From an uncultured Actinomycetes bacterium (GTDB lineage: Bacteria; Actinomycetota; Acidimicrobiia; IMCC26256; PALSA-610), in contig CAWIVQ010000003.1 of NCBI GenBank assembly GCA_963839575.1, positions 3,506,579-3,570,578 of the forward strand: 64,000 bases of DNA, given 5' to 3'. A program made the translations under genes and the position numbers. Numbering within the stretch: the first letter of the stretch is position 1; every line of letters begins with the position of its first letter. The notes below the pieces were generated by a model. That model searched no databases. It was not told where the DNA came from and saw only the letters and a program-made list of their open reading frames with translations. Shown here piece by piece: positions 14,465-58,600 of the stretch.

Positions 14465-15312
14465 GGAGCGGTGATCGCCCGTACGAGCGTGGGCAGCGAT
14501 TCGCGAAAGTCGGGGAGGAGCGGGCGTCCGGCGAGGCGTAGAGCCCGGTTGTCGAGCACCGAGTTCGCGGGGCGGGGCGCCGGGCGGGGTGGATCGAGGT
14601 CGGCGGTGGTGATCGGCACGACGCGCCCGGCATCGGCGCCGGCGGCCTGCAGCACCTCGCCCGCGAACTCGAACCAGCTCACCGGTCCTTGGTTGGTGAC
14701 GTGCCACGTCCCGGGCAGCCGCTCGACCACGAAGCTGCGCAGCATCGTGGCGAGGTCGGCGGCGACGGTGGGACAGCCCCGCTGGTCGTCGACGAATCGC
14801 AGCGGCGCGTCGCCGGCCGCGAGGCGCAAGATGGTCTTGGCCATGTTCGAGCCGTAGCGGCCGATCACCCACGATGTGCGGACGACCGCGCACTCGAGGT
14901 CGCTCTCGAACTCGCCACCGAGCTTCGATTGTCCGTAGACCGACTGCGGATTGGGCGTGTCCCACTCGTGGTAAGGCTCGGGTTGGGCGCCGTCGAAGAC
15001 GTAGTCGGTCGACAACGAGACGACGTACGCGCCGGCCTGGCGCGCCCCCTCCATGACGAAGCGGACCCCGAGCGCATTCACCAAGAAGGCGCGGTCGCGC
15101 TCGGTCTCGCACGCGTCGACCGCGGTCATGGCCGCGGAGTGGACGATCGCGTCGGGCCGGACGCTGCCGATCGCTCCGAGCACGGCATCGCGATCGCCGA
15201 CGTCGAGGCTCGCGTGGTCGAGGCCCACGACCTCGTAGCCGCTTCGTCCGGCGAACGCTTCGACGACCTCGCGACCGACCATTCCGCCCGCGCCGGTGAC
15301 CAGGACGCGCAA
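14461..15312 (-). CDS. rmlD: dTDP-4-dehydrorhamnose reductase
   Basis: 283 aa. MRVLVTGAGGMVG, IVHSAAMTAVD, STDYVFDG...Y.E.D.PNPQSVYGQSKLGGE. Last gene of the rml operon. Confidence 0.9.
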   Translation of the reverse strand: MRVLVTGAGGMVGREVVEAFAGRSGYEVVGLDHASLDVGDRDAVLGAIGSVRPDAIVHSAAMTAVDACETERDRAFLVNALGVRFVMEGARQAGAYVVSLSTDYVFDGAQPEPYHEWDTPNPQSVYGQSKLGGEFESDLECAVVRTSWVIGRYGSNMAKTILRLAAGDAPLRFVDDQRGCPTVAADLATMLRSFVVERLPGTWHVTNQGPVSWFEFAGEVLQAAGADAGRVVPITTADLDPPRPAPRPANSVLDNRALRLAGRPLLPDFRESLPTLVRAITAP

Positions 15313-15320
15313 CGCTCAGG

Positions 15321-16325
15321 TCACTTCCACGCCGCGGTCTCGTCGACCGGTGCCCGCTCGAGGAGCGGCTCCCACCAGGCACGGTTCGCGCTGTACCACT
15401 GCACGGTCTCCCGGATCCCGGCCTCGAACGCGACCTTTGGTTCCCAGCCGAGCTCCGCGCGGATCTTCGACGCGTCGAGCAGGTATCGACGGTCGTGACC
15501 GGGACGGTCGGGGACGATCGTCTTGAGCGACTCGGGCTTGCCCAGCACGGCGAGCACCGCGTCGGCGATCTCCGCGATGCTGCGCTCCTCGCCGGTACCC
15601 ACGTGGTAGGTCTCCCCGACGCGGCCGTCGTCGAGGATGCGGGCGATCGCGCTGCAGTGGTCGTCGGCGTGGATCCACTCCCGCCGATTCTCGGTCGATG
15701 CGTAGAGCGGGATCGGTTGGTCGTCGAGCGCCCGGGTGCTGAAGAGCGGGATCACCTTTTCCGGGAACTGGTACGGGCCGTAGTTGTTGGCGCAGTTCGT
15801 GATCGAGATCGGGAGCCCGAACGTCTCGTAGTACGCACGTACCGCGTGGTCGCCGCCCGCCTTCGACGCGTTGTACGGCGTTCTCGGTGCGTACGGCGAG
15901 GACTCGTTGAACGGCTCCGTCGCGTCGAGCGCGAGATCGCCGTAGACCTCGCACGTGGAGACATGATGGAAACGCCGGAAGCGTTCGACGCCGATCCGGC
16001 GCACCGCTTCGCACAACGTTTGCGTGCCGACGACGTTCGTGCGGAAGAACACGCCCGGGTTCGTGATCGCGTAGGAGTTGTGCGACTCCGCGGCGAAGTT
16101 GACGATGACGTCGATCTCGTGGTCGCGCAGCGTTCGCTCCGCGGCGGCGAGGTCGCCGATGTCGCCGTGGACGAACTCGTGAGGCACACCGGCGAGGCTC
16201 TCGCGATTTCCGGCGTAGGTCAGCGCGTCGTACACCACGACGGTGTCGGCCGGGCGCTCGCGTGCCCACCAGCGCACGAAGTTCGATCCGATGAATCCGG
16301 CCCCGCCGGTGACGAGCAGGTTCAT
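15321..16325 (-). CDS. rmlB: dTDP-glucose 4,6-dehydratase
   Basis: MNLLVTGGAGFIGSNFV, NFAAESH, HVSTCEVYG, SPYAPRTPYNASKAGGDH, NNYGPYQFPEKVIPL. ATG at 16325 inside ORF 15321..16451, overlapping the rmlC stop. Confidence 0.93.
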   Translation of the reverse strand: MNLLVTGGAGFIGSNFVRWWARERPADTVVVYDALTYAGNRESLAGVPHEFVHGDIGDLAAAERTLRDHEIDVIVNFAAESHNSYAITNPGVFFRTNVVGTQTLCEAVRRIGVERFRRFHHVSTCEVYGDLALDATEPFNESSPYAPRTPYNASKAGGDHAVRAYYETFGLPISITNCANNYGPYQFPEKVIPLFSTRALDDQPIPLYASTENRREWIHADDHCSAIARILDDGRVGETYHVGTGEERSIAEIADAVLAVLGKPESLKTIVPDRPGHDRRYLLDASKIRAELGWEPKVAFEAGIRETVQWYSANRAWWEPLLERAPVDETAAWK

Positions 16326-16888
16326 GTGCGCATCGGCCAGACCGGGCGGGTGCGCTCGGGGATCTCGGCGCGTTTGGGGTTGGCCGCATCGCGATCCGAG
16401 AGCGCCGGGTTGGTCAGGCCCCAGTCGGCTGCGATCTCGGGATCGTCCCACGCCACGCCGAGCTCGTCGGCCGCGTTGTAGTACCCGTCGACGAGGTAGG
16501 TGATGGTCATGTCGGTCAGGGAGCCGAACCCGTGGGCGACGCCGGGCGGTATGAAGACCCCTTGGTGGAGGTTCGTTCCGTCGTCGGCCTCGCCCAGGTC
16601 GAACACCTCGGTGGCACCTTCGCTCGCACTGCCGGCGCGCAGGTCATGGAGCACGACGCGGGCCCGACCGAACGGGACGTACCAATAGTCGGCCTGGTGG
16701 AGGTGGTAGTGCAGCCCGACGACGCAACCGGCCGAGCGGTCGGCGCGGTTCGCCTGGATCATCTCGCGCCCTGCGGGAATCCACTCGCGCCGGAAGGTCT
16801 CGACGAACAGCCCGCGACCGTCGTGGTGCAAGGTCGGGTGCACGTGAAACACGCCGGCGATCAGGGAGCTTTCCTCGACGGATGCCAT
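16322..16888 (-). CDS. rmlC: dTDP-4-dehydrorhamnose 3,5-epimerase
   Basis: Last 188 aa of the long ORF 16322..18106: MASVEESSLIAGVFHVHPTLHHDGRGLFVETFR...GLHYH...QADYWYVPFGRARVVLHDLR...PPGVAHGF (cupin). The upstream part of that ORF is Arg/Pro-rich antisense of rmlA. Confidence 0.88.
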   Translation of the reverse strand: MASVEESSLIAGVFHVHPTLHHDGRGLFVETFRREWIPAGREMIQANRADRSAGCVVGLHYHLHQADYWYVPFGRARVVLHDLRAGSASEGATEVFDLGEADDGTNLHQGVFIPPGVAHGFGSLTDMTITYLVDGYYNAADELGVAWDDPEIAADWGLTNPALSDRDAANPKRAEIPERTRPVWPMRT

Positions 16889-16890
16889 GA

Positions 16891-17997
16891 CTACTCCAGG
16901 TCGGCCCGGCAGTGGTCGCCGAGCAGGAGACGGGTCGCCTTCGGGCGTTCGCCGGTGCGCATGACCTCGACGTCGCGCCCGAGGAGGGAATCGTGAATGC
17001 GGTGCACTCCGGTGATGCGGCTCCGTTCGAGCACGACCGAGTGTTCGATCTCCGCGTCTCGCAGCTCGCAGTCGGCGCCGATGGCGGTGTACGGGCCGAC
17101 GTAGGTGTCGACGAGGAGCGTTCCGGAGCCGATGATCGCCGGCCCCCGGACCACCGACGCCTCGAGTCGTGCGCCGGCTTCGATGACGACCCGCCCCTCG
17201 ACACGCGACGCGCCGTCGACCCGACCGTCGATACGCGGCACGATGGTGTCGAGGACCAGACGGTTGCAGTGCAGCAGTGGGTCCTTCTTCCCCGTGTCGA
17301 TCCACCATCCCTCGAGCACCTCGTGCATCACGGGGTAGCCGCGGTCGATGAGCCACTGGATGGCGTCGGTGATCTCGAGCTCGCCGCGTGCCGACGGCGA
17401 GATCGCGTTGATCGCGTCGTGCACGCGCTCGTCGAAGATGTAGACGCCGGCGAGCGCCAGGTCCGACGGCGGATCGGTGGGCTTTTCGACCAGCCGGACC
17501 ACGCGGCCGTGCGCGTCGATCTCGGCCACGCCGAACTGCCGGGGATCGTCGACATGGGCCAGGAGGATCTGAGCGGCTGCGGGCTGGGCGGCCGGCTCGT
17601 GCAGCTCGAGGGGGCGGCTCCGATCCGCGAGGAACCGGTCGACGAGGGGCCGCAATTCCTGCTGCAGCATGTTGTCGCCCAGGTACATCACGAAATCGTC
17701 GTCGCCGAGGAAGTCGGCGGCCACGAGGACGCAGTGTGCGAGCCCGAGCGGCTCGGTCTGGAGGATGAAGGTCAGCTCGACGCCGAACTGCGAGCCGTCG
17801 CCGAGTGCGCTTTCGATCTCGGCCGCGCTCTCGGGCGACACGACGACGCCGATGCTCTTGATGCCGGCCGCGGCGATGTCCTCGACGACGTAGAACAAGA
17901 TGGGCTTGTTCGCGATCGGTACCAGTTGCTTGGCGCTCGTGTGGGTGATGGGCCGTAGCCGGGTTCCGGCGCCGCCCGCCAGGATCAGACCCTTCAT
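16891..17997 (-). CDS. rmlA: glucose-1-phosphate thymidylyltransferase, long form with C-terminal left-handed beta-helix
   Basis: MKGLILAGGAGTRLRPITHTSAKQLVPIANKPIL, YLGDN, EKP, LALAGVYIF. The C-terminal ~120 aa have hexapeptide-repeat character. ATG at 17997 inside ORF 16891..18042. Confidence 0.85.
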   Translation of the reverse strand: MKGLILAGGAGTRLRPITHTSAKQLVPIANKPILFYVVEDIAAAGIKSIGVVVSPESAAEIESALGDGSQFGVELTFILQTEPLGLAHCVLVAADFLGDDDFVMYLGDNMLQQELRPLVDRFLADRSRPLELHEPAAQPAAAQILLAHVDDPRQFGVAEIDAHGRVVRLVEKPTDPPSDLALAGVYIFDERVHDAINAISPSARGELEITDAIQWLIDRGYPVMHEVLEGWWIDTGKKDPLLHCNRLVLDTIVPRIDGRVDGASRVEGRVVIEAGARLEASVVRGPAIIGSGTLLVDTYVGPYTAIGADCELRDAEIEHSVVLERSRITGVHRIHDSLLGRDVEVMRTGERPKATRLLLGDHCRADLE

Positions 17998-18087
17998 TCC
18001 CTGCCGCCCTCTGCCCCACGCGTGTCGGATCAAAAGTATCACCGGCTATGGCGTCCACGCCCGGGGCGCCTGTCCTAACGTTCGGGT

Positions 18088-18429
18088 ATGGCCGACGACC
18101 CCGCATCCGGCGCTACCTTCGACCCGAACTGCGATTTGTGCGAAGCCGCGCGTATCACCGAATGGTTCCACGAGGACGACATCTGCTGGATCGCGGAGTG
18201 CGAGATCTGTGCCGTCCCGATGGTCGTGTGGCGCAGCCACGGCGTGACGCCGCCCGGAGATCAGCTCGCCCACATGCACGAACGGCTGGCGATCGTGGTG
18301 GGGGAGCGCTTCACGTTCGAGCACTACGTCGACGACAACATGCGCAACATCCCGGACCACTACCACGCACACGCGCGGCCACAGGGCGGCTTCTTCGGTC
18401 ACGGTCTCCAACGCCGCCCGCAGAACTGA
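18088..18429 (+). CDS. small Cys-rich HIT-like (histidine-triad) protein
   Basis: 113 aa. CDLCE near the N-terminus as in HINT-type proteins, a second CEIC, and a C-terminal DHYHAHARP matching the His-x-His-x-His-x-x triad pattern. Divergent from rmlA across a 90-nt lower-GC spacer. Confidence 0.5.
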   Translation: MADDPASGATFDPNCDLCEAARITEWFHEDDICWIAECEICAVPMVVWRSHGVTPPGDQLAHMHERLAIVVGERFTFEHYVDDNMRNIPDHYHAHARPQGGFFGHGLQRRPQN

Positions 18430-18442
18430 GTCGACCCACCTC

Positions 18443-19990
18443 GTGACCGATCACGTGCTCACGATCGACCTCGGCACCTCGGGGCCGAAGGTCGCGCTCT
18501 TCACCTTCGACGGAGCATTCGTCGACGGCGACTTCACGCCGGTCGCGTTGAACGTGCTGCCCGATGGCGGCGCCGAGCAGTCGCCGAGCGCGTGGTGGGA
18601 CGGGATCGCGAGCGCCGCACACCGACTCCTGGAACGAGCGACCGTGCCGGTCGACGACATCGTCGCCGTGGCGGTGACGTCGCAATGGTCGGGTACGGTC
18701 CCGATCGATCGCCACGGCGCGGTGTTGCACGACGCGATCATCTGGATGGACGCGCGTGGCGCGGCGGAGACGAGGCGCGTCGTCGGCGGCGCGTTGCGGC
18801 TGCAGGGCTACGAGCCGCGCAAGCTCCGCACCTGGATCAGCCACAGCGGCGGTGCGCCCGCGCTCTCGGGCAAGGATTCGATCTCGCACATCCTCTGGCT
18901 GCAGCGCGAGCGCCCCGACATCGCGCGCGGCGACGTGGAAGTACCTCGAGCCGAAGGACTGGCTCAACTACCAGCTCACGGGCCGGTGCGCGGCCACGTT
19001 CGACTCCATCGTGTTGCACTGGGTCACCGACAACCGGGATCCCGCCCGCGTCGACTACGACCCCGAGCTCCTCCGCATCGCCGGGCTCGACCGGGCTCAG
19101 CTTCCCGACCTGGTTCCGGCCACGTCGATCGTGGGATCGCTGACCGAGCAGGCCGCGTCGGCGCTCGGGGTGCGGGCCGGCATCGCGGTCGTGGGCGGTA
19201 CCCCCGACCTGCAGTCGGCCGCGATCGGTTCGGGTGCCGTTCGCGATTTCGAAGGCCACCTCTACGTGGGAACGTCGTCGTGGCTGACGTGCCACGTACC
19301 GTTCAAGAAGACCGACCTCTTCCACGGCATCGCGTCGCTGCCGTCGCCGTTGCCCGGCAAGTACTACGTGGCCGACGAGCAGGAGGTCGCGGGCGGGTGT
19401 CTGGAATGGCTGCGGGAGCACGCGCTGGAGACGGGTGACGACTTCCGCACGCTCGACGCCGTTGCGGGCGCGTCGGCCCCGGGGAGCAACGGCGTGATCT
19501 TCACGCCCTGGTTGAACGGCGAGCGCACTCCGGTCGACGATCACACCTTGCGAGCCGGCTGGCACAACCTCTCACTGGCGACGACGCGAAGCGACCTGGT
19601 CCGGTCGGTGCTCGAAGGCGTCGCGTACAACAGCCGTTGGCTCCTGGCCACGGTGGAGAAGTTCGTGGGCCGGCCGTTTCCCTGGTTGCACTTCATCGGC
19701 GGTGGTGCGCAATCGGAGCTCTGGTGCCGGATCATGGCCGACGTGCTCGAGCGCGAGATCCGCCAGGTCGAACATCCCATCCGGGCCAACGCACGCGGCG
19801 CCGCGCTGCTGGCGGGGATCGCGCTCGGAGCGGATCACGGTCGCCGACCTTGCCCGCAACGTCCGGGTCGTCGCGACCTACACGCCCGAGCGCGCGAACC
19901 GCGCGACGTACGAAGATCGCTATGCGGAATTCCCGCGTGTTGCACAAGCAGACGAGCCGGAGAACCAAACGCCATGTCCACGGCAGCTGA
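18443..19990 (+). pseudogene. FGGY-family carbohydrate kinase (xylulokinase-like), two or three frame breaks
   Basis: N-terminus LTIDLGTSGPKVALF...WMDARG in the frame of 18443..19438. Middle part WKYLEPKDWLNYQLTG...GTPDLQSAAIGSGA...FIGGGAQSELWCRIMADVL...ANARGAALLAG in the frame of 18756..20240. ITVADLARNVRVVATYTPE...YEDRYAEF in the frame of 19702..20484. Breaks near 18930 and 19830. The end is ambiguous: a further shift near 19930 would give ...RVLHKQTSRRTKRHVHGS with a stop at 19990. Confidence 0.75.
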
Positions 19991-20073
19991 GCGCGGGAGC
20001 CCGCGCTGCGTCCGCGACGACGCCTTCCCGATGCGCGGCGTGGGGCCTGGCCGAACCCGGCGAGCTCGATCGC

Positions 20074-20794
20074 ATGGTGATCATCTCGCCCCATCTCGAC
20101 GACGCGGTCTTGAGTTGCGGGCGGTTCATGGCCGCCCATCCCGGCGTCACGGTCGTCACCGTGTTCGCCGGCAACCCCGCCTCGTATCCCGAACCCATGC
20201 GGCTCTGGGACGTGCAGAGCGGCTTCGGACCGGGCGATGACGTGATGGAAGTGCGCCGCGGCGAAGATCGGGCCGCGCTCGCGCTCCTCGACGCCGTCGC
20301 CCGTGCATCTCGACTACGTCGAGCACTCCTACAACCCGGGCGATCGGCCCGTGGCGCCCGAGGTCGTGGCGGCCGGTCTCGTCGCCGTGCTCGGCGAACT
20401 CCGACCGACGCTGGTCCTGGCGCCGTTCGGGCTCGCGAATCCCGATCACGACGTGACCCACCGCGGCTGCATGCTCGCCCGTGAACAGCTGGCCGGCACG
20501 GAGGCGCCGCCGTCATGGTGGTGTTACGAGGACAACGGTTACAAGCACATCCCGGGAATGCTCGCGTGGCGCGTGTCGGCGCTGTTTCGGCGCGGGCTCT
20601 GGCCGACGCCGGTTTGTCCGAACGTCGACGATCACGGCGAGCGCAAGGCGGCCGCGGTCGATTGCTACCCGTCACAGTTGCTGGCGCTCGAGGACGACTG
20701 GCAGATCCGGACGAAGCTCGCCGCACCCGCGCCCGAGCAGTACTGGCGCCTCGCGCCGCCCCCACCGGGGTGGGAAGGTCTCGCGTCGCGGTGA
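20074..20794 (+). pseudogene. PIG-L/LmbE-family deacetylase, one frame break near 20300
   Basis: MVIISPHLDDAVLSCGRFMA...VTVFAG...RRGEDRAALALLDAV in the frame of 19702..20484. It continues VHLDYVEHSY...LAPFGLANPDHDVTH...CYPSQL in the frame of 20303..20794. Confidence 0.75.
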
Positions 20795-20833
20795 ACCGGC
20801 GATGATCTGCCGGTGCCCCGAGCGCTCGGCCCG

Positions 20834-22836
20834 CTACGCGACGAGCACCGACGTGAAATCCTTGACGCCACCCAGCACCGTGGCGTCTCCGAACGCCGCG
20901 ACCGTTCCGTCGGCGCCGGCGATCCAGTAGCCGTTGCCCGAGTTCGAGCAGGCGAACCCGACGGCCTTCGCCGTCGTCGGGAGCATCGCGCCGCGGAATT
21001 TCGCGTCGCCGTAGGCGAAGATGCCGCCGTCGCTCGCGGAGAGCCAGTAGCCCTTGCCCGTGACGGTCGCGCCCATGGCGACGATCGGTTGATTGAGGCG
21101 GATCGCGCCGGTCGAGCCGTAGAACTTCGCGTCGCCGTAGGCGAAGATGCCGCCGTCGCTCGCGCAGAGCCAGTACCCCTTGCCGGTCGGTGTCGTGGCC
21201 ATCGCGACGATCGGTTTGTTCAGCCTCATGGCGCCGGTCGAGCCGTAGAACTTCGCGTCGCCGTAGGCGAAGATGCCGCCGTCGCTCGCGCAGAGCCAGT
21301 ACCCCTTGCCGGTGGTCGTCGCGGCCATCGCGACGATGGGTTTGTTGAGGCGCATGCCACCGGTCGAACCGTGGAAGGCGGCGTCACCGAAGCTGAAGAT
21401 GCCGCCGTCGGAACCGGCGAGCCACAACCCCTTTCGGGTCGGGGTGCGTGCGCCGGCGACGAGCGGGAACGCGACGTGCGCGAGCGAGCTGAACTTGGTG
21501 GCGGACCGAGCCCGTAGATGTGGCCGGTGGGCCCGGCGATCCAGTAGCCGACGCTCGAGGTCGACGGCGGTTTCACCGCCGCCGGAAGGCCCGGACCGGC
21601 TTTGAAGAGGCCGAGCGGCGTGTACGACTTGCCGAGCACGGAGCGATCGTCGACGCCGAGCCACGTCTTGAGGATGGGCGCGTACATCTGGTGGAAGTCG
21701 ACGCTCGGGACGAAGTTCCCGTCGCGATCCAGATTGGTCAAGCTGGGCTGCGTCCCGTGCAGGCCGCCGCGCACGTGGTCGCCGATGACGAAGTGCGGTG
21801 CGGCCGTGCCGTGGTCGGTCCCGCCGTCGCCGTTCTCCTCGGGTCGGCGCCCGAACTCCGAGAACGTCATCATCGCCACGTTCGGGAGCCACTTCGGCGC
21901 CAGCGTGGCGAAGAACGCCGCGACGGCGTTGTCGATGCGGCCCAGCAGCGTTGCGTGCCAGTCGCGCTCGTCGGAGTGCGTGTCGAATCCGTCGATCTCG
22001 GTGTCGAACACCCGGATGCCGAGGTTCGCGTTGATCAGGTGGGCCGCGAGCACGAGTTGCTGTTGGAGGTCGTTGGGCTGATCGGGGAATCCGTACGCCG
22101 GACGGATCCGTTGGGTCAGCATCATCAGATCGGACTCGGTCTGGTCGTAGAGGTCGCCGAGACCGTCGAGGCCGGACGCCCCGGTGCCGAGGCCGGCCAG
22201 CGCGTCGAACATGCGCGCGTCCGACGGGTCGGTGCGGTTGATCCCGAAGGCCCCACCGATGTTGAGCGGGAGTGACGACGGGTGTGCAACGTCGCCCTGC
22301 AGGTGCTCGCTCACGTTGCCGTGGAGCGACACGCCGTACAACGACTCGTGGGCGGCGTTGGGGAGCCGGTCGAGGAATCGGCCCGCCCATCCCGACGTCA
22401 CCGCGCCGGAACCGCCCCACCCGTGCATCCAGATGTCGCCCGAACTGAAGTGGCTCAGGTCGGGTGGCTGGTACCCGACCCCGCGGACGACCGCGACCTT
22501 GCCTTGGTCGAAGCGTGCCTTCAGCTTCGGCATCGCCGGGTGCAACCCGAGCCCGCCGCCGATCGGGAGCGAGTTCGTGACCCGCAGCGACGAGCGCAGA
22601 TGCGCGTACTGGGGGTCGGCGTAGGGAATGACCATGTTCAAGCCGTCGTTGCCGCCCGCGAGGTTGATCGTGACGAGGATGCCCTCGTTGTCGGCCACGG
22701 GCGGCGCCGCGAACGCCCGCAGCTTCGTGAGGTACGGGCTCACGGCGACCACCCCCGTGCCCACCGCTCCGTACTGCATGAATCGGCGGCGGGAGAAGCG
22801 GTTCCGTTCGAAGATGTTGGGTCCGGATGTCGTCAC
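20834..22836 (-). pseudogene. Tat-signal DUF1501 (sulfatase/phosphatase-like) protein fused to a C-terminal six-repeat GYW/SDGG.F.FGDA domain, one frame break near 21503
   Basis: ORF 21226..22836: twin-arginine signal RNRFSRRRFMQYGAVG, then DUF1501-like blocks (NLAGGNDGLNMVIPY, DGFDTHSDE, FSEFGRRPEENGDGGTDHG). After a PAAVKPPSTSS linker the first repeat VGYWIAGPTGHIYGLG runs into the frame of ORF 20834..22420, which holds five more ~42-aa repeats (GYWLCASDGGIFAYGDAKFYGSTGAMRLNKPIVAMA...). Confidence 0.75.
20979..21482. repeat. tandem 126-nt (42-codon) coding repeats inside the DUF1501 fusion gene
   Basis: Copies starting at 21105 and 21231 share an identical first 83 nt (gcgccggtcgagccgtagaacttcgcgtcgccgtaggcgaagatgccgccgtcgctcgcgcagagccagtaccccttgccggt). 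Flanking copies at about 20979 and 21357 are more diverged. Confidence 0.85.
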
Positions 22837-22846
22837 GATCGCGCTC

Positions 22847-24159
22847 CTAGGCGAGGTTGAATTCCGGGCTGAGCATCAGCAGCGTCAACAGGTTGATGAA
22901 CGTCCAGTTGACCCACGCGTGGGTATCGGTGCGCTGCTTCGTCAACCACGCTTCGAGTGCCGACCGCGTGTGCGCGGACGGGGCGTCGATGCCGAAGAAG
23001 TCGAAGCCGTACTGGATCGCGTCGTGGACGCTCATCGTGGTAATCGCGCTCGAGTCGGTTCTGCACGTCGTTGTTCTTCCAGACCAGGCCGCGGCCCCAG
23101 TTCGCGCGCGCCCAGAGCCGCGACGTCGTGAGCCAGTACTCGTTGGGCCGCCAACCCGACACGTTCGGCGGCTCGAAGAGTTGCTGGCCCATGTCGTCCA
23201 TGTACCACTGCGGGTTTGCGTCCTCCGCGGTGATCCCGGCCACGCGCATGCACGCCGCGACCCATTCCGCCGGGGTCCGTACGAGGCCGTTCATCGCCTT
23301 CGGGGAGACGAAGTTCGGGTGCATGAAGATCGCCCGCACGAGATCGTGGATCGAGAGGTCGTTGCCCAAGAAGGAATTGGCGAGGCTCGTCACGACATCG
23401 GGTTCGGGGTCGGGGTAGGCGAAGAACGACCACATCTTGGCGGCGATGAACTTCGCGGCGATCGTCTTGTGGGTCGTGTCGGACCCGAGGATGAAGTCGA
23501 TGATGTCGGGACCGTCCCAGTTCTGGGTGACGCCCATGAAGGTCTTCAGCCCGGTGTCGTGGCGGTCGGGATAGAAGTGGTACTGCTCCCGATCGCCGTC
23601 GAGCGTGTTGTGGCCGGTCCATGCCCGGGCCGACGACACCACGTCGGCCTGGCTGTACTGGTCGACGCCGAGCGTGAAGAGTTCCATGAGCTCGCGCGGC
23701 GAAATTCTCGTTCGGGCTGCCCTTGACGTTGGGATCGTTGTCGAGCCAGATGAGCATCGCGGGTTGCAGCGACATCGAGTGCACGAGATCGCGGAAGTTC
23801 GCGGTGGCGTTGGCGCGGAACAAGGAGTTCTGCTGGTACATGAGGAGCATGTCGCCGACCTTGTAGTTCGCGGTCGCGAAGTGCCCGTGCCAGAACAGCG
23901 TGAGCTTCTCCTGCAGTGGCGAGGTGGAGGTCGCCATACGGTCGAGCCACCACTGCTGGAGCATGTACTCCTTTTGCCAGTCGCCCGTGCCCGAATCGGT
24001 GAGGTATGCGGGCTGCGTGTCGACCGGCGCACTCGAGAAGTCGAGGAGCTGGTCGACGGTCGTATCCCACGGTTGGGCGGCGAGGGTGTTGACCTGCGTG
24101 ATGGTTCCGCCGAAGCCGGCGCGACGAAGTAGATGTGCGACGTTCGCGGGAAGCGGCAC
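22847..24159 (-). pseudogene. DUF1800-family protein, two frame breaks
   Basis: N-terminus VAHLLRRAGFGG...FWHGHFAT...NDPNVKGSPNENFA in the frame of 23032..24159. RELMELFTLGV...GPDIIDFIL...PPNVSGW in the frame of 22833..24032. The end ...INLLTLLMLSPEFNLA is in the frame of 22847..23035. Breaks near 23697 and about 23040-23080. Lies 10 nt upstream of the DUF1501 gene, the usual pairing. Confidence 0.75.
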
Positions 24160-24255
24160 GTCGTTCCCCCTAATCGATGGTCTCCCCAGACCGCCGTTCC
24201 CTCATCGACGGGAATCGGGTCGGTTCTTGAGCGATCAGGGCCCCTTCATGGGGAA

Positions 24256-25110
24256 TCAGGGCCATCCCGCGCCGGGTACCTCGACCGCGACGGCTTCGAT
24301 GCGACCACCATGCGCAACACGTGCCTCGTCGGGCACGTGGGTCGGTGCTGTGCACACGTACAGGGTGCTGCGGTCGTCGCCGCCGAGCATGCACGCGAAC
24401 GCGCCGGGATGCGTTCCCTTCACCTCGTCGACGATCGCGCCGCCCTCACGGACGCGCAGCACGCGCCCGCTGAACGGGCACGCGGCCCAGATCGCGCCCT
24501 CGGCGTCGAGGCACATTCCGTCGACGGTCGCGCCCTCGAGTTGGGCCCAGACGCGCGGGTTCGACAGCGACCCGTCCGAAGCGATGTCGAACGCGCGGAC
24601 GCGGCCGGCCATGCTCTCGCCGACGAGCAACGTCGAGCCGTCGGCGGTGACTACCGAGCCGTTCGGGAACGCGAGGCCGTCAGCCGCGACGCGGGCCTCG
24701 CCGTCGGGCTCGACCGCGACGACGCACGTCGTCTCGGCCTTCGCGCCCGCGTACATGTCGAAGCCGAAGTTCCCCACGTAGGCGCGGCCGCGCCCGTCGA
24801 CCACCATGTCGTTGCACGGCGCCGGCGCCAGCCCGGAGAGGTCGGCATGCAACGCCAGCGCGCCCCCTGCTTCGAGGCGCATGACGGCTCGGTCGAGCAT
24901 CGACACGACGAGCAGGGTTCCGTCGGGCAGCCAACCGAGACCGGACGGCTGCCCGGGGACCTCGACGACGGTCTCGGCAGTTCCGTCGGGCCGCATCGCG
25001 ACGACGCGCTTGTCGTGCTGGTCGGAGAACCACAGCCGACCGTCGTGCCAGCGGGGACCTTCGGGAAACGCGAGCCCGTCGAGCACCACCGTTGTCGTGC
25101 GTGCAGTCAT
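24256..25110 (-). CDS. SMP-30/gluconolactonase/LRE-family beta-propeller hydrolase
   Basis: Last 284 aa of ORF 24256..26724: MTARTTTVVLDGLAFPEGPRWHDGRLWFSD...PNGSVVTADGSTLLVGES...DGMCLDAEGAIW. ATG at 25110. Confidence 0.8.
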   Translation of the reverse strand: MTARTTTVVLDGLAFPEGPRWHDGRLWFSDQHDKRVVAMRPDGTAETVVEVPGQPSGLGWLPDGTLLVVSMLDRAVMRLEAGGALALHADLSGLAPAPCNDMVVDGRGRAYVGNFGFDMYAGAKAETTCVVAVEPDGEARVAADGLAFPNGSVVTADGSTLLVGESMAGRVRAFDIASDGSLSNPRVWAQLEGATVDGMCLDAEGAIWAACPFSGRVLRVREGGAIVDEVKGTHPGAFACMLGGDDRSTLYVCTAPTHVPDEARVAHGGRIEAVAVEVPGAGWP

Positions 25111-26724
25111 GGATCCGGACGGTACTCGTCGGGCTCGGTCGTGTGGACGGGGCTGATCTCGTCGAGCGTGCGGGCCGCGGATTCCGGCAAGAGGGGAATG
25201 ACGAGGAGCGCGACGAGGAACGACCCCACACCGGTGAGCGCAACCGACTTGCCGATGCCGCCGAGATGGTGGGACAGGTCGCCCGCGAGGAGCAGTCCCG
25301 TTGCCGAGCCGATCACCCCGACGACGTAGAGCATCGCGTTCGAGGTGGAGCGCACTTCGGTCGGGAAGAGCTCGGCGTCGAGTGTCCCCAACGCGATCCC
25401 GCCCGCGCCGGCCATGAAGATCGACACGGCCGACATCAGCCACAGGGACACACCGCCGGTGAGGAAGAAGATCATCTGGGTGCCGGTGGCGACGGCGAGC
25501 GCGATGCCCGCGACCGGGCGGCGCCCGCGGATCTCGGCGAGGCGCCCGCCGACGAGCACGCCGACGAGTCCGGGAAGCGGCGGTGGTCACGGTGCGGAAG
25601 GCCGCGATATCGGTGTTCGTGAACCCGCGGATGTCGGTCAGGTACTTGTTCATGAACGACGATGACGGTCCGCTGAAGAAGCTCGTGAGGAACGCGACGA
25701 CCGCGAGCAGCAGGAACCGGTGGCCGTTCTGCCGGAACACGTCCCGGGCCCGGCCGCGCACCACGTCGGCACGCGCGGCGAGCGCGGTGTAACGGGCGGT
25801 CTCACCGAGCGAGCGCGCGACCGCCGGCGCGAGGAGGATCGTCGCGCCGCCGAGCGCGAACGGGATGCGCCAACCCCACGACGCGATGTCGCCCAGGGGC
25901 AGGGTCACGACGGAGAAGGAGAACCCGAACCCGCCCGCGAGCGCGAGCATCGACGCGGCGTAGGCGCGCGCGCCCTCGGGGGCTTCCTCGACGACCGCGA
26001 GGAACGCCACGGTGGCGGTGGTGCCGACGAGCCCACGTTGCAGTATCTGCGCGGTCGTGAACGCGGCGAGGTTCGGCGCGGCGGCCGACGCGGCGCAGAC
26101 GATCGCGGAGCCCACGACGCCGATGAGGATCGACCGCCGCCGACCGCGGCGATCGGCGATCGCGATCGCGAACAGGGCGAACAACGCGCCGAGGCGGGTG
26201 AGCGCGAACGCGACGCCGATCGTCGCGTCGGAGGCGCCGAAGCTGCGGCTGATCGGGCTCGACAGCTGACCGAACAGCGCCGCCGCGAAGGAGACGATCG
26301 CCGTCGCCGCGGCCGCGGTCGCGATGAAGGCGGACTGCTCCGGGGTGAACGCGACCGGCGGGAGACCGACGACGGTCCGCGGCCGGACCGGACCGGGCCG
26401 GCCGTCGAGCGCGGTCCGGATCGTCTCGAGCGCGAAGCCACGTGACCTCCGGTGCGCGATCGCGACGAGGGGTCGGAAGAACCACCCGAAGAAGGGGATC
26501 TCGATATCGCCCACCGACGTGACCGTCAGATCGGTTCCGGTGCCGCCCGCCGCCTCGGCCAGTACGAGGGTCAGTCCGATCGCGGGCTGCTGGTCGAGCG
26601 GCGCGGCGACCGCGAGGGCATCGGCCCGCAGAGGTGTGGCGCCGAGTCTTCCGACCGCCGCCTCGCGCACCGCGTCGACCGGGGCCGCGAGCCGAACGAG
26701 CGAAGACCGCGGCACGCGCGGCAT
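25107..26724 (-). pseudogene. MFS transporter with an extra ~125-aa N-terminal domain, one frame break near 25580
   Basis: Frame of 24256..26724 gives the N-terminal soluble-looking domain, then TM helices and the MFS loop motif IADRRGRRRS, up to ...DIAAFRTVTT. The last TM helices LPGLVGVLVGGRLAEIRGRRP...LLPESAART are in the frame of 25107..25559. Confidence 0.7.
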
Positions 26725-26761
26725 GCTACGGGCGCAGCCCAGATGTCTCTCGGAGGGTCAG

Positions 26762-27232
26762 ATGACGACATTGTCCGTCGGCGACAAAGCCCCGGCGATC
26801 ACCTTGAAGGACCAGCACGGCAAGACCGTGAAGCTTTCCGACGCGAAGGGCAAGCGGGTCGTCGTGTACTTCTACCCGAAGGCCGACACACCCGGCTGCA
26901 CCCAGCAGTCGTGCAACCTGCGCGACGCCTTCTCGCGACTGAAGAAGCTGAACGCAGTCGTCTACGGAATCAGCCCCGACGCCGTCGAGAAGCAGAAGAA
27001 GTTCGACGACAAGTACGGGCTCGGCTTCCCCCTGCTCGCCGACACCGAGCACAAGGTGGCGGAGGCATTCGGGGTGTGGGGCGAGAAGTCGCTGTACGGC
27101 CGCAAGTACATGGGGATCGTCCGGTCGGCGTTCGTCGTCGACGAAAAGGGCAAGCTCGCCGGCGTGTTCTACAAGGTGTCCCCGAAGGACACCGTGCCCA
27201 AGACGCAGAAGGTCCTGGAGGAGCTCGGATAA
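26762..27232 (+). CDS. bcp: thiol peroxidase / peroxiredoxin Bcp
   Basis: MTTLSVGDKAPAITLKDQHGKTVKLSD...VVVYFYPKADTPGCTQQSCNLRD...GISPD. ATG at 26762 inside ORF 26324..27232. Confidence 0.9.
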   Translation: MTTLSVGDKAPAITLKDQHGKTVKLSDAKGKRVVVYFYPKADTPGCTQQSCNLRDAFSRLKKLNAVVYGISPDAVEKQKKFDDKYGLGFPLLADTEHKVAEAFGVWGEKSLYGRKYMGIVRSAFVVDEKGKLAGVFYKVSPKDTVPKTQKVLEELG

Positions 27233-27423
27233 GCGCCCTTTCGCGTCGAGCGTCCCCGGGTCGTGTCAGATTCATGAAGGGTGCGCTTCACGGAGACGAC
27301 ACGCAGCCGAGACGGTCGCGAAAGGTTCCGAGAGTGAAGTAACCCCGGGACGAACGAGCGCACTGCGCGTCAGCACCATCGAAACGGCCACGCTCCGGCG
27401 TCGGCCGCTCACGGGGAGGCGAC

Positions 27424-29531
<2,108 letters not shown>

Positions 29532-29617
29532 GGAGCCTTGTTTTTCGGGGTTTCCAGCGCGCAGCCTGGGGGGAGCCGTGCCGTGTAGGTAGTGATCATC
29601 CTGGCGGACCCGGCCAA

Positions 29618-29681
29618 GGTCGACCCCGCGGATCAGCTCGTTCGTCCCAAGCGAATGCGCGCTGTGCCCGCGGGGTCGACC
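29618..29681 (+). promoter_or_regulatory. perfect 14-bp inverted repeat (stem-loop) in the kdp leader
   Basis: ggtcgaccccgcgg (29618-29631) and ccgcggggtcgacc (29668-29681) are exact reverse complements separated by 36 nt. They lie in the ~570-nt non-coding stretch between glnK and the first kdp-associated ORF. Confidence 0.6.
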
Positions 29682-29949
29682 GCGTCCGGGACGGTATCGC
29701 TAAGGACGCGCAAAGAACGCCGCCGTCGCCGCAAGGAAGCCGTCAAGTCGTCTGTTCCTCACCGGGGAACGGCGCATCATCGAGTCATGACGCATGCCAC
29801 GTGCAGCCGGCACCGGGCCGGTGGGACCTTTGTCGGCAGGAACGGGCCGGTTGGCGCTACTTCCTCGTCGCCAAGGGTCCTAGGACTGTGATCTTGATGG
29901 GCGCTCTCGCGATGACGCGGGCCGTCCGGTCCAACGAAGGGGTTGTCCC

Positions 29950-30105
29950 GTGCAAGATGTGATCTTCCTCGCGATCCTCATGGCGTTCTTCGCGCTCGCG
30001 GTCGTGTTCGTGAAGGCCTGCGAGCTCATCATCGGGCCCGACGTCGAAGCCGCACGCGCGGATGCGGGCGCGACCGGGCCCGGCGACGAGAAGGTCGCGG
30101 CATGA
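29950..30105 (+). CDS. candidate 51-aa single-TM small protein upstream of kdpF (below the ORF-track size cutoff)
   Basis: GTG at 29950 preceded by GAAGGGG. My translation: [51 protein letters not shown]. Its TGA (30103-30105) overlaps the ATG of kdpF (ATGA coupling). Confidence 0.45.
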
Positions 30106-30195
30106 CCGGTCTCGAAAGCGTGATCGGGCTCGCCCTCGAGCGCGCTCGCGGCCGCATACCTCGTCTACGCCCTCGTCTTTCCGGAGAAGCTCTGA
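30102..30195 (+). pseudogene. kdpF: K+-transporting ATPase subunit F, apparent frame break near 30140
   Basis: ATG at 30102 gives [12 protein letters not shown]. The characteristic KdpF end [15 protein letters not shown]-stop (TGA 30193-30195, overlapping the kdpA ATG) is in another frame that has no start codon of its own. Confidence 0.5.
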
Positions 30196-31911
30196 TGACC
30201 ATGGCCGCCTGGGCCGAGCTCGGGGCGTTGATCGCGATGTTGGCGGTCAGCACGCCGTTGCTCGGCAACTACATGGCAAAGGTGTACGGCGCGAAGCGTG
30301 CGCCGGGCGACCGCGTCTTCCTCCCGGTCGAGCGCGCGATCTATCGCCTCACCGGCGTCGACCCCGACAGCGAGCAGCGCTGGCAGACCTACGCGCTCTC
30401 GTTGCTCGCGTTCAGCTTCGCCTCGGTGCTCATCCTTTACGCCCAACTGCGGTTGCAGGGCCATCTGCCCTTCAACCCCGACGCGCAAAAGGGCGTGAAG
30501 CCGACCCTGTCGTTCAACACGGCCGTCAGCTTCCTCACGAATACGAACTGGCAGAACTATTCGGGCGAGACGACGATGTCGCACCTCACCCAGATGGCCG
30601 GCCTCGCGGTGCACAACTTCGTGTCGGCCGCGGCGGGCGCGGCGGTCGCAGTTGCTCTGATCCGGGGTCTCGTGCGCCGGCGTACGCACACGGTCGGCAA
30701 CTTCTGGGTCGATCTCGTGCGCACCACGACCCGCATCCTCTTGCCGCTCTCGTTCGTGTTCGCGCTGGTGCTCGTGAGCCAGGGCGTCGTGCAGAACTTC
30801 CACGCCGCCAAGACCGTGACGACCGTTGCCGGTCAGACAGCAGACACTTCCGGGCGGGCCGATCGCCAGCCAGGAAGCGATCAAGGAGATCGGTCAGAAC
30901 GGCGGCGGCCCCTACAACGCGAACTCGTCGCACCCGTTCGAGAACCCGAACGCCATCACGAACCTTCTCGAGATCTGGATGTTGCTCGCCATCCCGTTCG
31001 CGTTCCCGTGGATGTTCGGGAAGATGGCGGGTTCGACGAAGCAGGGCCTGGCCGTGCTCAGCGCGATGCTCGCGCTCTGGCTCACCATCTCGATCGTCGC
31101 GATGGTGTTCGAGGCGAACGGCAACTCCAAGCTCGACAAGCTGGGAGTGACGCAGAGCGCCACGTCGACCCAGGTCGGCGGCAACATGGAAGGAAAGGAA
31201 ACCCGGTTCGGGCCCGCGACCTCGGGCCTGTTCGCGTCGTCGACCACCGGGACGTCGACCGGTTCGGTCGACTCGATGCACGACAGCTTCACGCCCATCG
31301 GCGGCGCCGCACCGCTGGTCAACATCATGCTGGGCGAAGTCGATCCCGGCGGAACCGGTTCGGGCCTCTACGGCATGTTGCTGTTCGCACTGTTGTCGGT
31401 GTTCATCGCGGGCCTCATGGTCGGCCGAACTCCCGAGTACCTCGGGAAGAAGATCCAGGGCGCCGAGATGAAGCTCGTGGTGCTCTACATCTTGTTCGTC
31501 CCGCTCGTGATCCTCGCATTCACCGCGGCGTCACTCGTGATGAAGCATCCGCTGGGCTCGCTCGAGAACTCCGGGCCCCACGGGCTGACCGAGATGACGT
31601 ACACGTTCACGTCGCAGGCCAACAACAACGGCTCGGCGTTCGCCGGTCTTTCGGGCAACACCGACTGGTTCAACGTGACGGGTGGTCTGGCGATGCTCAT
31701 CGGCCGGTTCATGTTGATGATCCCGGTTCTCGCGATCGCCGGGTCGCTCGGCCGCAAGCAGCCCACACCCGCGTCGGCGGGCACCTTCCCCACCGATACC
31801 GGGTTGTTCGCAGCGTTGTTGACGGGTGTCGTCGTGATCGTCGTCGGCCTCACCTACTTCCCGGTCGTCGCGCTCGGCCCCGTGGTCGAGCACCTCGTGG
31901 GCAAGTTCTAG
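30195..31911 (+). pseudogene. kdpA: K+-transporting ATPase subunit A, one frame break near 30840
   Basis: [16 protein letters not shown]...[19 protein letters not shown]...[16 protein letters not shown] in the frame of 29943..31928. It continues [36 protein letters not shown]... to the stop at 31911 in the frame of 30826..31911. Confidence 0.85.
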
Positions 31912-55680: not shown

Positions 55681-58600
55681 TCAGCGATCGAAGGCGGCGA
55701 GTCCCACGATGGGTGCCGGTGGCACGCGGTTGCCGAGCGAGCCGAGGAAGGGCGAGCTGGAGAAGTCGAACACCCCGCCGTCGGACGCGGCGAGCAGGTA
55801 GCCGTTGCCGAAGCGCACCATGCCGACGATCGCCCGGTTGAGACGGATCGCCCCGAGCGAGCCGCGGAAGGGTGCGTCGCCGAATGCGAACACCCCACCG
55901 TCTGCCGCGTCGAGCCAGTAGCCCCTGCCACTCGACGTCGGAACGAGCCCGATGATCGGTTGGTTGAGGCGCGTCGACCCGAGCGACCCCCGGAAGCGCG
56001 CGTCGCCGAACGCGAACACCCCGCCATCCGATGCGACCATGAAGTAGCCGCGGCCCGAGGCGGTCGGGACGGAGTCGATCACGCTGCCGTTCAGGTGCAC
56101 ACCGCGCATGTCGCCGTAGAACTTGGCATCGCCGAGGGCGAAGACGCGCCCTTCCGTCGTGAACAACCAGTAGCCCTTGTGCGTCTGCGTCTCGCTGATC
56201 GCCCGCACCTCTTCGCCGGGGTCGAGCGGGCCGCCGTCGCCGTACCATCGCGCGTCGCCGAACGTGTACACATGGCCGGCGCGATTGACGATCCAGTAGC
56301 CCTGCGCGGTGTCCGTCGGTGTGAGATGCGCGACCGTCGGGTCGGCCGGGTTCCCGTATGGGTGCGCGTTGCCGAACGCGTACACGGCGCCGTCCGCGCC
56401 GAGCATCCAGTATCCGTGCTGCGGCTTGGCGACGACGTGCGCGGTGAAGGTGACGTTGCGCACCCCCAGGCCGTCGGCGGGGTTGATCGACCACGTGTCG
56501 GTGAACGTCCCCGTCTTCGTCGCGGAGAACCGGACCCGCTCGGTGAGGGTGCCGCCGGGCGGCAGGTTCGTACCTTCGGGCAACAACGTGCGCGCGGTAA
56601 ACCCGAGGTTCCTCGCGGGTGGCTTCGAACGCACGATCGACGCGGCCAGGCCCCCCGTGTTGCGGAGCACGAACTGCGAGTCGACCGTCGTTCCCACGGT
56701 CACGTTGGCGAGATCGAACGACGTCGGCGTGATGGTGACGTGCGCGGGATCGGCGACGACCCCCGTCAGCTTGACGGTCTGGTCGCCACCGTCGGAGTGC
56801 ACGGTGAACTGGTCGTCGTGTTCGCCTTTGGTGACGCCCACGGCAGGCGCGAACGTGACGGTCACGGTGATGGACGCGCCCGGGGCGATCGTGCTTCCCG
56901 GGGCCGGGACGTTCGCGAGGGTGAACGGTGAGCCGGTCGCCGGCGGATCGGTGGCGCCGAGGTTCGCGACGGTCGCGCCCTGGTTCGAGAGGGTGACGAC
57001 TCCCGACAGCGGGTTGCCGCCCGCTGTTGTTCCGCCCAGGCTGAGCAGTGCCGGCGACGCGACGAGATCGGCCGAGGCGGTCGCTCCGACGGCGGTGAGC
57101 GCGATGTCGACGGGGCCGTCGGTGGTCGCGGCTTCCAGCGTCGTCGACGCAAGCCCCACCTTGGTCGGGGTGAACGTGATCGGCACCGTGATCGTGTCGT
57201 TGACGGCGAGTGACGCGGATGTCGCCGGAGTCGCGTTGCCGATGCCGAACGTGGCGGCGCTCGAACTGAACCCCGTGACCGTGGTCGGGCGTTGGGCCGT
57301 GAAGGTCACCGTCGCGGTGGCCGATTGCCCGACGACGGTGGTCGGGAACGAGGCCGGCGACACCTGCAAGGGCGCCATCACCGGTGACCCGAATGCGAGT
57401 ACGTGGCCGTCGCGCGCGCCGACGTAGACGCGTGCGCCGTCAACCGCCGGAACCGAGTACTTCGACGCGGTGCCGATGGGAGCGCTCCACAGCAGCGTGA
57501 ACTGGCCGTTCACCGGGACTGGGTCGTAGGCGCGGAGTTGCGCGTTCGCGCCCGTGCCGTCTGCTTCCCACACGACCCAGAGCACGGGGCTCCCGGACGC
57601 GACCCCGTTCGAGGTCACCACCGGGCCACCGGAGCCGTACCCGAACGTGTCGGTCGTCGAAGCTGCGAGGCTCAGCGTGGGGTTCCCGGTTCCGTCGACG
57701 CCGTACTTGTACGCCCGCAAGTACCCCGACGAGCCGGCGCCCACCCCGCCGGAACCGTTCGCGGTCACGACGTACACGTACCCGCCGTCGCCCGGCCAGA
57801 CTGCCGGACGGCTCCACACGCCCCCATACGGCCCGACCCGCGCGACGACGCTGTCGCCGCCGCCCGCGCCCTGCTGGTAGCCGCCGAGGTGGTCGCGATC
57901 GAGGAGGTAGACGTAGCCCTGCTTTCCCTCGGTCACGAGGAGGTGCGGGTGGCTCGGCGTCCCGAAATATGCATCGGGCAGACCGACCGGGCCGCCGGAG
58001 CCGAAGTCGAGGTCGTTCTGTTCGAGCGTCGCGCCGTCGTAGGGGGCGAAGAAGTCGACCGGCTTCAACGTGCCGTCGGGTTGCACCACGACCCGCGCGA
58101 CCGCCTCGGAGAGGTCGTTCGGCGGCTGATTGCCCGGGCGGGGCCCGCTGAGGTCCCAGCCGCCGTTGCCGGTCGAGAACAGGATCTGGCCGTCACCGTC
58201 GGATACGAGACCCGACCCCGCCTGCCAGATGCCCGCGCCCGAGACGTCGTCGCGCACCGCGGTGAACATCGTCGTGATGGCGTGCGTCGTCGTCGACAGA
58301 CCGACGATCCACCCTGCCCACGGGTATCCGTCGCAGCTCGATCCGAATGCGGCGTACACGACGCCGTTCATCAACAGCAGTCCCGGCCGCTGCAATTGCA
58401 TCAGGGGATTGAACTGGTGCGCCGCGTTGTGGGTCGCGTTGTCGGCGTAACCCGCGATCGTGATCGGCCACCCCGGTGCCTCGGTCCCGGTCGCGACGTT
58501 GACTGCGTGGGCAAGGTATTGCGGTGTGCCGGAGCTGCCGGACACGTACTGCTTGTCGAGGAAGTAGGCCGTGTTCGTCGCCGGATCGACGACCGGAGTG

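Follow-up and report, generated by a model that had tools for sequence, protein, structure and literature searches.

We analysed a 64,000-nucleotide stretch of contig CAWIVQ010000003.1 (assembly GCA_963839575.1, positions 3,506,579 to 3,570,578; hereafter the window) from an uncultured soil actinobacterium of the class Acidimicrobiia. The G+C content of the window is about 69%. Two adjacent genes on its minus strand, between positions 20834 and 24159, encode a DUF1800 protein and a DUF1501 protein that continues into six C-terminal tandem repeats, which we call the GYW module. DUF1800 lies upstream, and 10 nucleotides separate its stop from the DUF1501 start. The module, a predicted and distantly RCC1-like propeller, is unnamed, very abundant and probably used as a wall anchor, and what this locus mainly adds is the fusion to DUF1501 and the pattern of DUF1800. 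A first-pass annotation of the window had reported a DUF1800 gene paired with a DUF1501 gene bearing a twin-arginine translocation (Tat) signal, six repeats of about 42 amino acids (aa) after a Pro/Ser linker, a second copy of the module at the end of a 1116-aa protein, and frame breaks in both genes of the pair. All of this was borne out: both family models matched, all six repeats of each module were located in the sequence, and one frame break was found in DUF1501 and two in DUF1800 (Table 1).

After stitching of the frames, the fusion protein scored 83.5 bits against PF07394 (cut-off 27), a family that all of its orthologues carry, and the protein encoded directly upstream matched PF08811 over the whole profile. 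The N-terminus of the fusion protein, MTTSGPNIFERNRFSRRRFMQYGAVGTGVVAVSPYLTKLRAFA followed by APP, has a twin-arginine motif, then a hydrophobic core and then an AxA site, and the N-terminal stretch includes FSRRRFMQYGAVG. The Tat models gave borderline scores (TIGR01409, 16.3 against a cut-off of 16.7; PF10518, E = 0.11). The arginine pair (R16/R17) was at least 90% conserved in 88 orthologues.

Table 1. Genes and features of the locus and of related loci (positions are those of the window unless another sequence is named).
Feature	Position	Strand	Remarks
DUF1800 gene	22847..24159	-	437 aa stitched; N-terminus without export signal; PF08811, 335.9 bits, profile 1-419/419; two frame breaks
DUF1800 frame pieces	24159 to ~23698, ~23697 to ~23062, ~23061 to 22847	-	three frames, tblastn
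DUF1501-GYW fusion gene	20834..22836	-	667 aa stitched; GTG start at 22836
Twin-arginine signal peptide	22708..22836	-	residues 1-43; cleavage-type site between AFA and APP ends at 22708
Tat motif SRRRFMQ	22794-22774	-	followed by hydrophobic core and AxA site
DUF1501 catalytic domain (predicted)	21598..22707	-	residues ~44-413; PF07394; predicted local distance difference test (pLDDT) mostly 76-98 in the orthologue model
Pro/Ser-rich linker GPGLPAAVKPPSTSS	21553..21597	-	after residue 413
Frame break in repeat 1	21503..21505	-	1-base deficit against orthologue L001; between GLG and SATKF
GYW module, six repeats of 40-42 residues	20837..21552	-	from repeats, Tandem Repeats Finder and AlphaFold2 of orthologue
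Repeat starts	21549, 21430, 21304, 21178, 21052, 20932	-	from the sequence
Second GYW module, six repeats	55684..56415	-	repeat starts 56415 to 55803; 353.8 bits against module profile
Gene of 1116-aa protein	55681-59031	-	intact; carries second GYW module at C-terminus
Second DUF1800/DUF1501 pair	G000:C3:1650365-1653000	-	same genome, outside window; unbroken, without GYW module
Alternative DUF1501 extension	L105:1157-3667	-	other Acidimicrobiia genus
Alternative DUF1501 extension	L107:1595-4075	+	other Acidimicrobiia genus
Alternative DUF1501 extension	L108:1217-3706	-	other Acidimicrobiia genus
Example viral carrier	L030:3572-4363		Amidase_2, then 2-3 repeats

DUF1501 and the repeats form one gene. 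In a database search, more than 80 clusters of 640-715 aa were 42-87% identical to the stitched protein over 96-100% of its length, and the named fusion clusters came from Acidimicrobiia or Actinomycetota metagenome bins. Intact orthologues of 667 aa covered 100% of the stitched protein at 82-87% identity, and their sequences ran uninterrupted across the position of the break in repeat 1. A single intact fusion open reading frame (ORF) with DUF1800 directly upstream was present in two ENA contigs (L001 and L002) and in two genomes of the same genus (G062 and G066); in another genome of the genus (G068) the fusion was intact to residue 608, and the contig ended inside the repeats. Because intact single ORFs in relatives span the whole stitched protein, the fusion is real, and the alternative set against it beforehand, that the repeat region is a separate gene, fails.

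The break in the DUF1501 gene lies at about 21503-21505, inside repeat 1 (between GHIYGLG and SATKFSS), where a DNA alignment showed the window to be one base short of its closest intact relative; the pieces matched by tblastn, residues 1-444 and 446-667, were in different frames. DNA alignment to the intact orthologue of L001 and tblastn placed the breaks of DUF1800 at about 23697 and about 23045-23068. Three breaks in two adjacent genes could be real, in which case DUF1800 and DUF1501 would be pseudogenes that this strain inactivated not long ago; the pair is also variably present in the genus, with no match at E<=1e-80 in four of eight genomes, and a second, unbroken pair lies elsewhere in the same genome. 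We consider this very improbable, because the neighbouring kdpA, MFS, PIG-L and FGGY genes are broken at the same density. When the proteins of an intact relative, 87% identical, were compared with positions 14473-31908 of the window (about 17 kb), nine frame changes were needed: one each in kdpA, MFS, DUF1501 and PIG-L, two in DUF1800 and three in FGGY. Protein identity to the intact orthologue was still 79-89% beyond each break, with no stops and no decay. In sibling assemblies of few contigs the breaks fell in other genes and none in the DUF1800/DUF1501 pair; G062, for example, was broken three times in MFS and also in PIG-L, FGGY, NTP_transferase and RmlD, with the pair unbroken. Completeness within the genus also dropped with long-read-like contiguity, from 86-99% in many-contig assemblies to 54-86% in few-contig assemblies. 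Taken together, the density of the breaks, the identity kept past them, the siblings and the completeness pattern indicate that the three breaks almost certainly arose as errors of long-read assembly and are not biology. The breaks also make the MFS and the neighbouring SGL (SMP-30/gluconolactonase-like) genes look like one 822-aa ORF. The pattern of the nine breaks fits long-read indel noise.

Repeats 2 to 4 of the module follow the consensus GYWLxASDGGIFxYGDAxFxGSTGxxxLNxPIVAMAxTxTGK, repeats 1 and 6 are degenerate, and repeat 5 keeps to the consensus over the first half only. Tandem Repeats Finder reported a 126-bp period with 3.3 copies, 87% matches and a score of 600 at 20996-21410, an observation far beyond chance. 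The 87% DNA identity of these central repeats suggests recent blade amplification or gene conversion, and the contig of the short-read assembly G068 breaks exactly within the GYW repeats. For AlphaFold2 we took the module from an intact orthologue and supplied an alignment of 18 paralogous modules. The resulting model (mean pLDDT 89.7; predicted template modelling score, pTM, 0.87) has 18 main strands, three per repeat, and confidently predicts a propeller, which we read as a six-bladed ring, in agreement with the earlier guess, made from the repeats, of six blades. The ring is probably closed by TSVLVA, the strand at the C-terminus. In the model of the full-length orthologue, the module blocks had pLDDT values of 89-97, the values fell below 50 at linker residues 419-426 and in the signal peptide (1-42), and the overall pTM was 0.59. 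Because the linker is of low confidence and the full-length pTM is 0.59, the catalytic domain and the propeller appear to be independent and flexibly tethered.

The first-pass annotation had named no characterised function for the repeat. Searches of Pfam, NCBIfam and PDB chain sequences gave no match above threshold; nor did we find the GYW repeat described in the literature. The best PDB match of the module profile was the RCC1-like domain of HERC2 (E = 0.005, 18.9 bits), with the repeats in register. Three Pfam families recurred below threshold across the 18 modules, Ribosomal_L24e in 14, RCC1_2 in 11 and DUF5818 in 10. The best RCC1_2 match had E = 7.2e-5, one printed score being 19.3 bits against a cut-off of 22, and WD40_RLD and RCC1 gave E values of 0.053 and 0.47. 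Foldseek searches of PDB with the full-length and module-only models returned generic WD40/YVTN propellers only, whereas the top matches in BFVD were giant-virus RCC1 proteins, with template modelling (TM) scores of 0.4-0.6. With its six predicted blades the module can at most be distantly related to the RCC1/BLIP-II-type propellers, and it scored below the cut-off of every such family tested.

The module and the RCC1/BLIP-II group (RCC1, RCC1_2 and WD40_RLD; BLIP-II of Streptomyces exfoliatus) have in common that they are all-beta propellers of short tandem repeats, the module by prediction, and that both are secreted in actinobacteria. In the HERC2 match the Gly-rich turn of RCC1 type, DG.V..wG.n..GqlG, aligns with DGG.F.FGDA.F.GS of the module, and a BLIP-II repeat has three main strands, as in our model. 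The module differs in having six repeat units of 42 residues, against seven of 40-60, and in being appended to about 40 exported proteins per genome and to phage lysins, a use undescribed for RCC1/BLIP-II; BLIP-II itself was absent from the PDB sequence matches of the module profile and from the Foldseek top 50. The WD40/YVTN propellers were the best PDB matches in Foldseek (E about 1e-8, TM 0.5-0.68, query-normalised), but they have seven blades, superimpose with a root-mean-square deviation of 5-6 A at 9-17% identity, and are not accompanied by a WD40 Pfam match of the module, so that the similarity is generic to the fold.

The RCC1-type similarity bears on one alternative to wall anchoring, namely that the propeller docks on proteins, either attaching its cargo to a surface scaffold or S-layer in the manner of cohesin and dockerin, or binding targets as BLIP-II binds beta-lactamases. 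The nearest detectable relatives (HERC2, the RCC1_2 matches, the BFVD top matches) are of RCC1 type, and RCC1/BLIP-II propellers, which include many highly repetitive bacterial members, bind proteins (PMC9218822). The RCC1 link is weak, however, and no conserved partner or scaffold gene was seen beside the carriers. Known binding domains of phage lysins, a class of protein that also carries the module (see below), recognise wall carbohydrate or peptidoglycan and not proteins. We therefore regard protein docking as quite improbable and favour a wall ligand.

The recurrent match to ribosomal protein L24e (PF01246), sub-threshold to borderline, covers about 20 residues of the DGG.F.F turn (for example residues 132-152 of L007, against profile positions 15-35; P0072 and P0090 are further examples). 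A ribosomal identity was ruled out, since these multi-domain proteins are exported and a propeller fold is predicted for the repeats. JGI labels some carriers 'ribosomal protein L24E', which looks like systematic mis-annotation; the spurious match is probably behind the name.

An exhaustive HMMER scan of the module over 1.84 billion representatives, clustered at 50% identity, yielded 19,030 clusters with E<=0.001, of which 8,949 passed E<=1e-30. Within the order, 22 of the 51 genomes carry the module, with 1-70 matches each, and families have it all-or-none with one exception; in a phylum-wide sample it was present in 5 of 101 genomes. In the source genome (3.9 Mb) a single-repeat hidden Markov model marked about 40 loci, which comprise 46 ORF pieces. 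Whole modules of this genome have, with few exceptions, 5-6 repeats, and the six-repeat unit is thus fixed. The module stands either at the C-terminus or directly after a signal-peptide-like N-terminus. The suggestion of a portable domain on exported proteins, possibly for envelope attachment, was strongly supported by the partner domains and the phage lysins (see below); its position is not always C-terminal, several copies in this genome lying directly after the signal peptide.

The partners in the source genome, by Pfam, are YkuD with PG_binding_1, Amidase_2, Polysacc_deac_1, two Peptidase_M23, Peptidase_S8 and CAP, together with a borderline VanY, weak matches to glucosaminidase and to Rpf-type transglycosylase, FG-GAP, fn3 arrays and one GH26-like protein. 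Among 80 diverse carriers from the global search, 49 partner families were found, including subtilase, TIG, Ig, cadherin-like, Kelch, CAP, GH25, GH26 and deacetylase. The glycoside hydrolases GH25 and GH26 among these representatives, and the GH26-like protein of the source genome, could be read in favour of lectin-like targeting, in which the ligand of the propeller would be a polysaccharide of the environment or of foreign organisms (plants, fungi or other bacteria), so that the attached enzymes are brought to their substrate. Beta-propellers are common lectin scaffolds, and DUF1501, as a secreted esterase, might have to be directed to a polymer. Yet most enzyme partners in the source genome (L,D-transpeptidase, Amidase_2, M23, borderline VanY, deacetylase) target the cell's own peptidoglycan, and many carriers are non-enzymatic Ig/Fn3 arrays, which are typical of surface display. 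Forty to seventy matches per genome, moreover, are more in keeping with an anchor of general use than with a specific carbohydrate-binding module, and the phage lysins that carry the repeats must bind the host wall. These observations make foreign-polysaccharide targeting unlikely, though less so than protein docking, and leave a wall anchor as the preferred function.

The module resembles in its use the wall-binding modules of Gram-positive bacteria (SLH, LysM, SH3b, CW_binding_1/2, PG_binding_1 and ChW), which are likewise portable terminal repeats on exported wall hydrolases, proteases and adhesin-like proteins, and which are C-terminal in phage amidase lysins; the expansion of the module is lineage-specific. 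It differs from them in having no sequence relation, in its predicted six-bladed propeller, and in that its binding to the wall is a property we infer. No match to any of these families was found within the repeat region, PG_binding_1 being a separate domain in one carrier, and a match to SH3_YKFC_2nd in the module was trivial (19.5 bits against a cut-off of 27.4).

Viruses carry the repeat as well. In IMG/VR we found 71 loci (L024-L094), most of which encode proteins of 200-340 aa. An N-terminal Amidase_2 domain was present in 43 of the 69 proteins scanned, GH25 in two more and VanY in one, and the viral amidases bear 2-3 repeats at the C-terminus. Over the viral proteins, 36 have two repeats and 26 have three, numbers at which a six-bladed ring would need trimers or dimers. 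One 1044-aa viral protein (L027:3059-6190) has twelve repeats in the middle of the ORF and gives the impression of a protein of tail-protein size. Among GenBank phages there was one carrier, a GH25 protein of a mangrove-soil phage. The C-terminus is where lysins have their wall-binding domain, and this placement of the repeats argues more strongly than any other observation for a wall component as the ligand.

The fusion of the GYW module to DUF1501 is confined to a single clade. Of 20 other DUF1501 genes sampled across the class Acidimicrobiia, none carries the module, and in a genome of the same family (G052) the orthologue is unfused; the idea of the fusion as a general trait of DUF1501 in the class was therefore rejected. 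Three of the 20 bear a different extension at the C-terminus, also unnamed and without a Pfam match; it is built of three repeats, each about 125 residues long, whose consensus is LDTR.G.G....V.V.G..GVP..A.AV..NVT...P....L.V.P.G..RP..SNLN.... The second pair in the source genome has a clear Tat signal (MTRRSISRREFLAGLGAAGALSAAGAYG). DUF1501 has thus acquired more than one kind of non-catalytic tail in these monoderm bacteria, and, given the unfused second pair, the unfused G052 orthologue, the sampled genes lacking the module and the alternative tails, tethering is optional.

We next consider the DUF1501 domain itself. Invariant in the 88 orthologues are GGND (61-64), SHF (128-130), D285/H287 and DHG (341-343), and the set D64, S128-H129, D285/H287 and D341-H342 would fit a bimetal ester-hydrolase site of the alkaline-phosphatase superfamily pattern. 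The first-pass annotation had likened DUF1501 to the sulfatase/alkaline-phosphatase fold, a resemblance that was not confirmed. The DUF1501 profile had no match in the catalytic domain among PDB sequences, only weak ones in the propeller part; alignment of the catalytic domain by hhalign to sulfatases of this genome and of relatives was colinear and not significant (E = 0.2 and 0.028), and the fold search with the full-length model was swamped by propeller matches. DUF1501 is a putative member of the alkaline-phosphatase clan of Pfam.

DUF1800 was directly upstream of DUF1501 in 18 of the 20 loci sampled across the class. Wherever the start could be placed in these loci, the conserved beginning of the domain, aHLlRRxGFG, lay within about 10-20 residues of the start codon, so that a signal peptide is excluded and DUF1800 consistently lacks an export signal. 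Among the sampled loci no DUF1800-DUF1501 fusion protein was found, the long open frames there being high-GC read-through, and DUF1800 had no match among PDB sequences. DUF1800 may be a cytoplasmic escort or maturation factor of its Tat partner, or a piggy-back passenger. In gene order, tight spacing and Tat motif the locus resembles the stand-alone DUF1800/DUF1501 pairs (PF08811/PF07394) of Proteobacteria, Planctomycetes and Actinomycetota (PMC5122149), and it differs from them in that DUF1501 bears a C-terminal propeller of about 240 residues. In the literature the two genes figure only as operon partners of unknown function, with a Tat motif (PMC5122149), and beyond such remarks on operon and Tat motif we found in it no functional work on DUF1501 or DUF1800.

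We propose, with a probability of about 0.6, that the GYW propeller serves to retain a Tat-exported DUF1501 metalloenzyme non-covalently on the cell wall. The locus is, on this reading, a two-gene DUF1800-DUF1501 operon of a monoderm Acidimicrobiia bacterium. DUF1501, which from its Asp/Ser/His set may be a metal-dependent ester hydrolase or transferase of alkaline-phosphatase type, would be exported by the Tat route folded and probably metal-loaded. Its flexible Pro/Ser linker would join it to the six-bladed propeller, and the propeller, portable and non-catalytic, would bind a wall component (peptidoglycan or a wall polymer) and so keep exported proteins at the cell surface, with DUF1501 tethered in the wall zone. 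DUF1800 would either stay in the cytoplasm as a maturation or escort factor, or leave piggy-back with DUF1501. The analysis showed the gene structure, the fusion, the predicted fold, the spread of the family, its partner domains and its place in phage lysins, and from these the binding to the wall, the chemistry of the enzyme and the part played by DUF1800 are inferred. A wider proposal is more tentative, and we put it a little short of even odds: that the module is a new wall-binding class and a main non-covalent display system in about half of the families of the order, borrowed by phage lysins and tail proteins, with DUF1800 possibly an escort or piggy-back partner.

Several points weigh against wall retention. 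The argument for wall binding is one of domain context only, and many of the partners (Ig, Fn3, cadherin-like, Kelch, PQQ) are uninformative about the ligand. The alkaline-phosphatase-type chemistry is unconfirmed, neither the PDB sequence search nor hhalign having given a significant match. The existence of DUF1501 genes free of the module, both the Tat-signal pair of the same genome and all 20 of the genes sampled, indicates that tethering is not required for the enzyme. Lastly, a sortase was present in all 51 genomes of the order, module-bearing or not; the module is thus no substitute for covalent anchoring, and the idea that it replaces sortase was rejected for want of any anti-correlation.

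The Pfam and NCBIfam copies that were searched contain no model for this family of about 19,000 clusters, and it has no solved structure. If the module is a wall anchor, it defines how the secretome of abundant uncultured Acidimicrobiia of soil and freshwater is displayed, helps to predict which hosts uncultured phages infect, and provides a new binding module for lysin engineering or cell labelling. The fusion implies that DUF1501 acts outside the membrane, beside the wall, for a pair that is otherwise widespread and uncharacterised, and the absence of an export signal from DUF1800 leads to a testable hypothesis on its role.

The genes around the fusion are arranged in a conserved order. In the window an MFS transporter, SGL, DUF1800 and DUF1501-GYW follow one another on one strand (20834-26724), and this arrangement was kept in all five relatives examined (L001, L002 and L121-L123). 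PIG-L and/or an FGGY kinase come next on the opposite strand where the flank was covered; the contig of L123 ends, and FGGY is absent in L002. The other carrier in the window is the 1116-aa protein. Besides its complete GYW module it has a signal peptide, HYDIN/ASH-type Ig-like domains and a PQQ-like propeller, for which the PQQ_2 match was weak.

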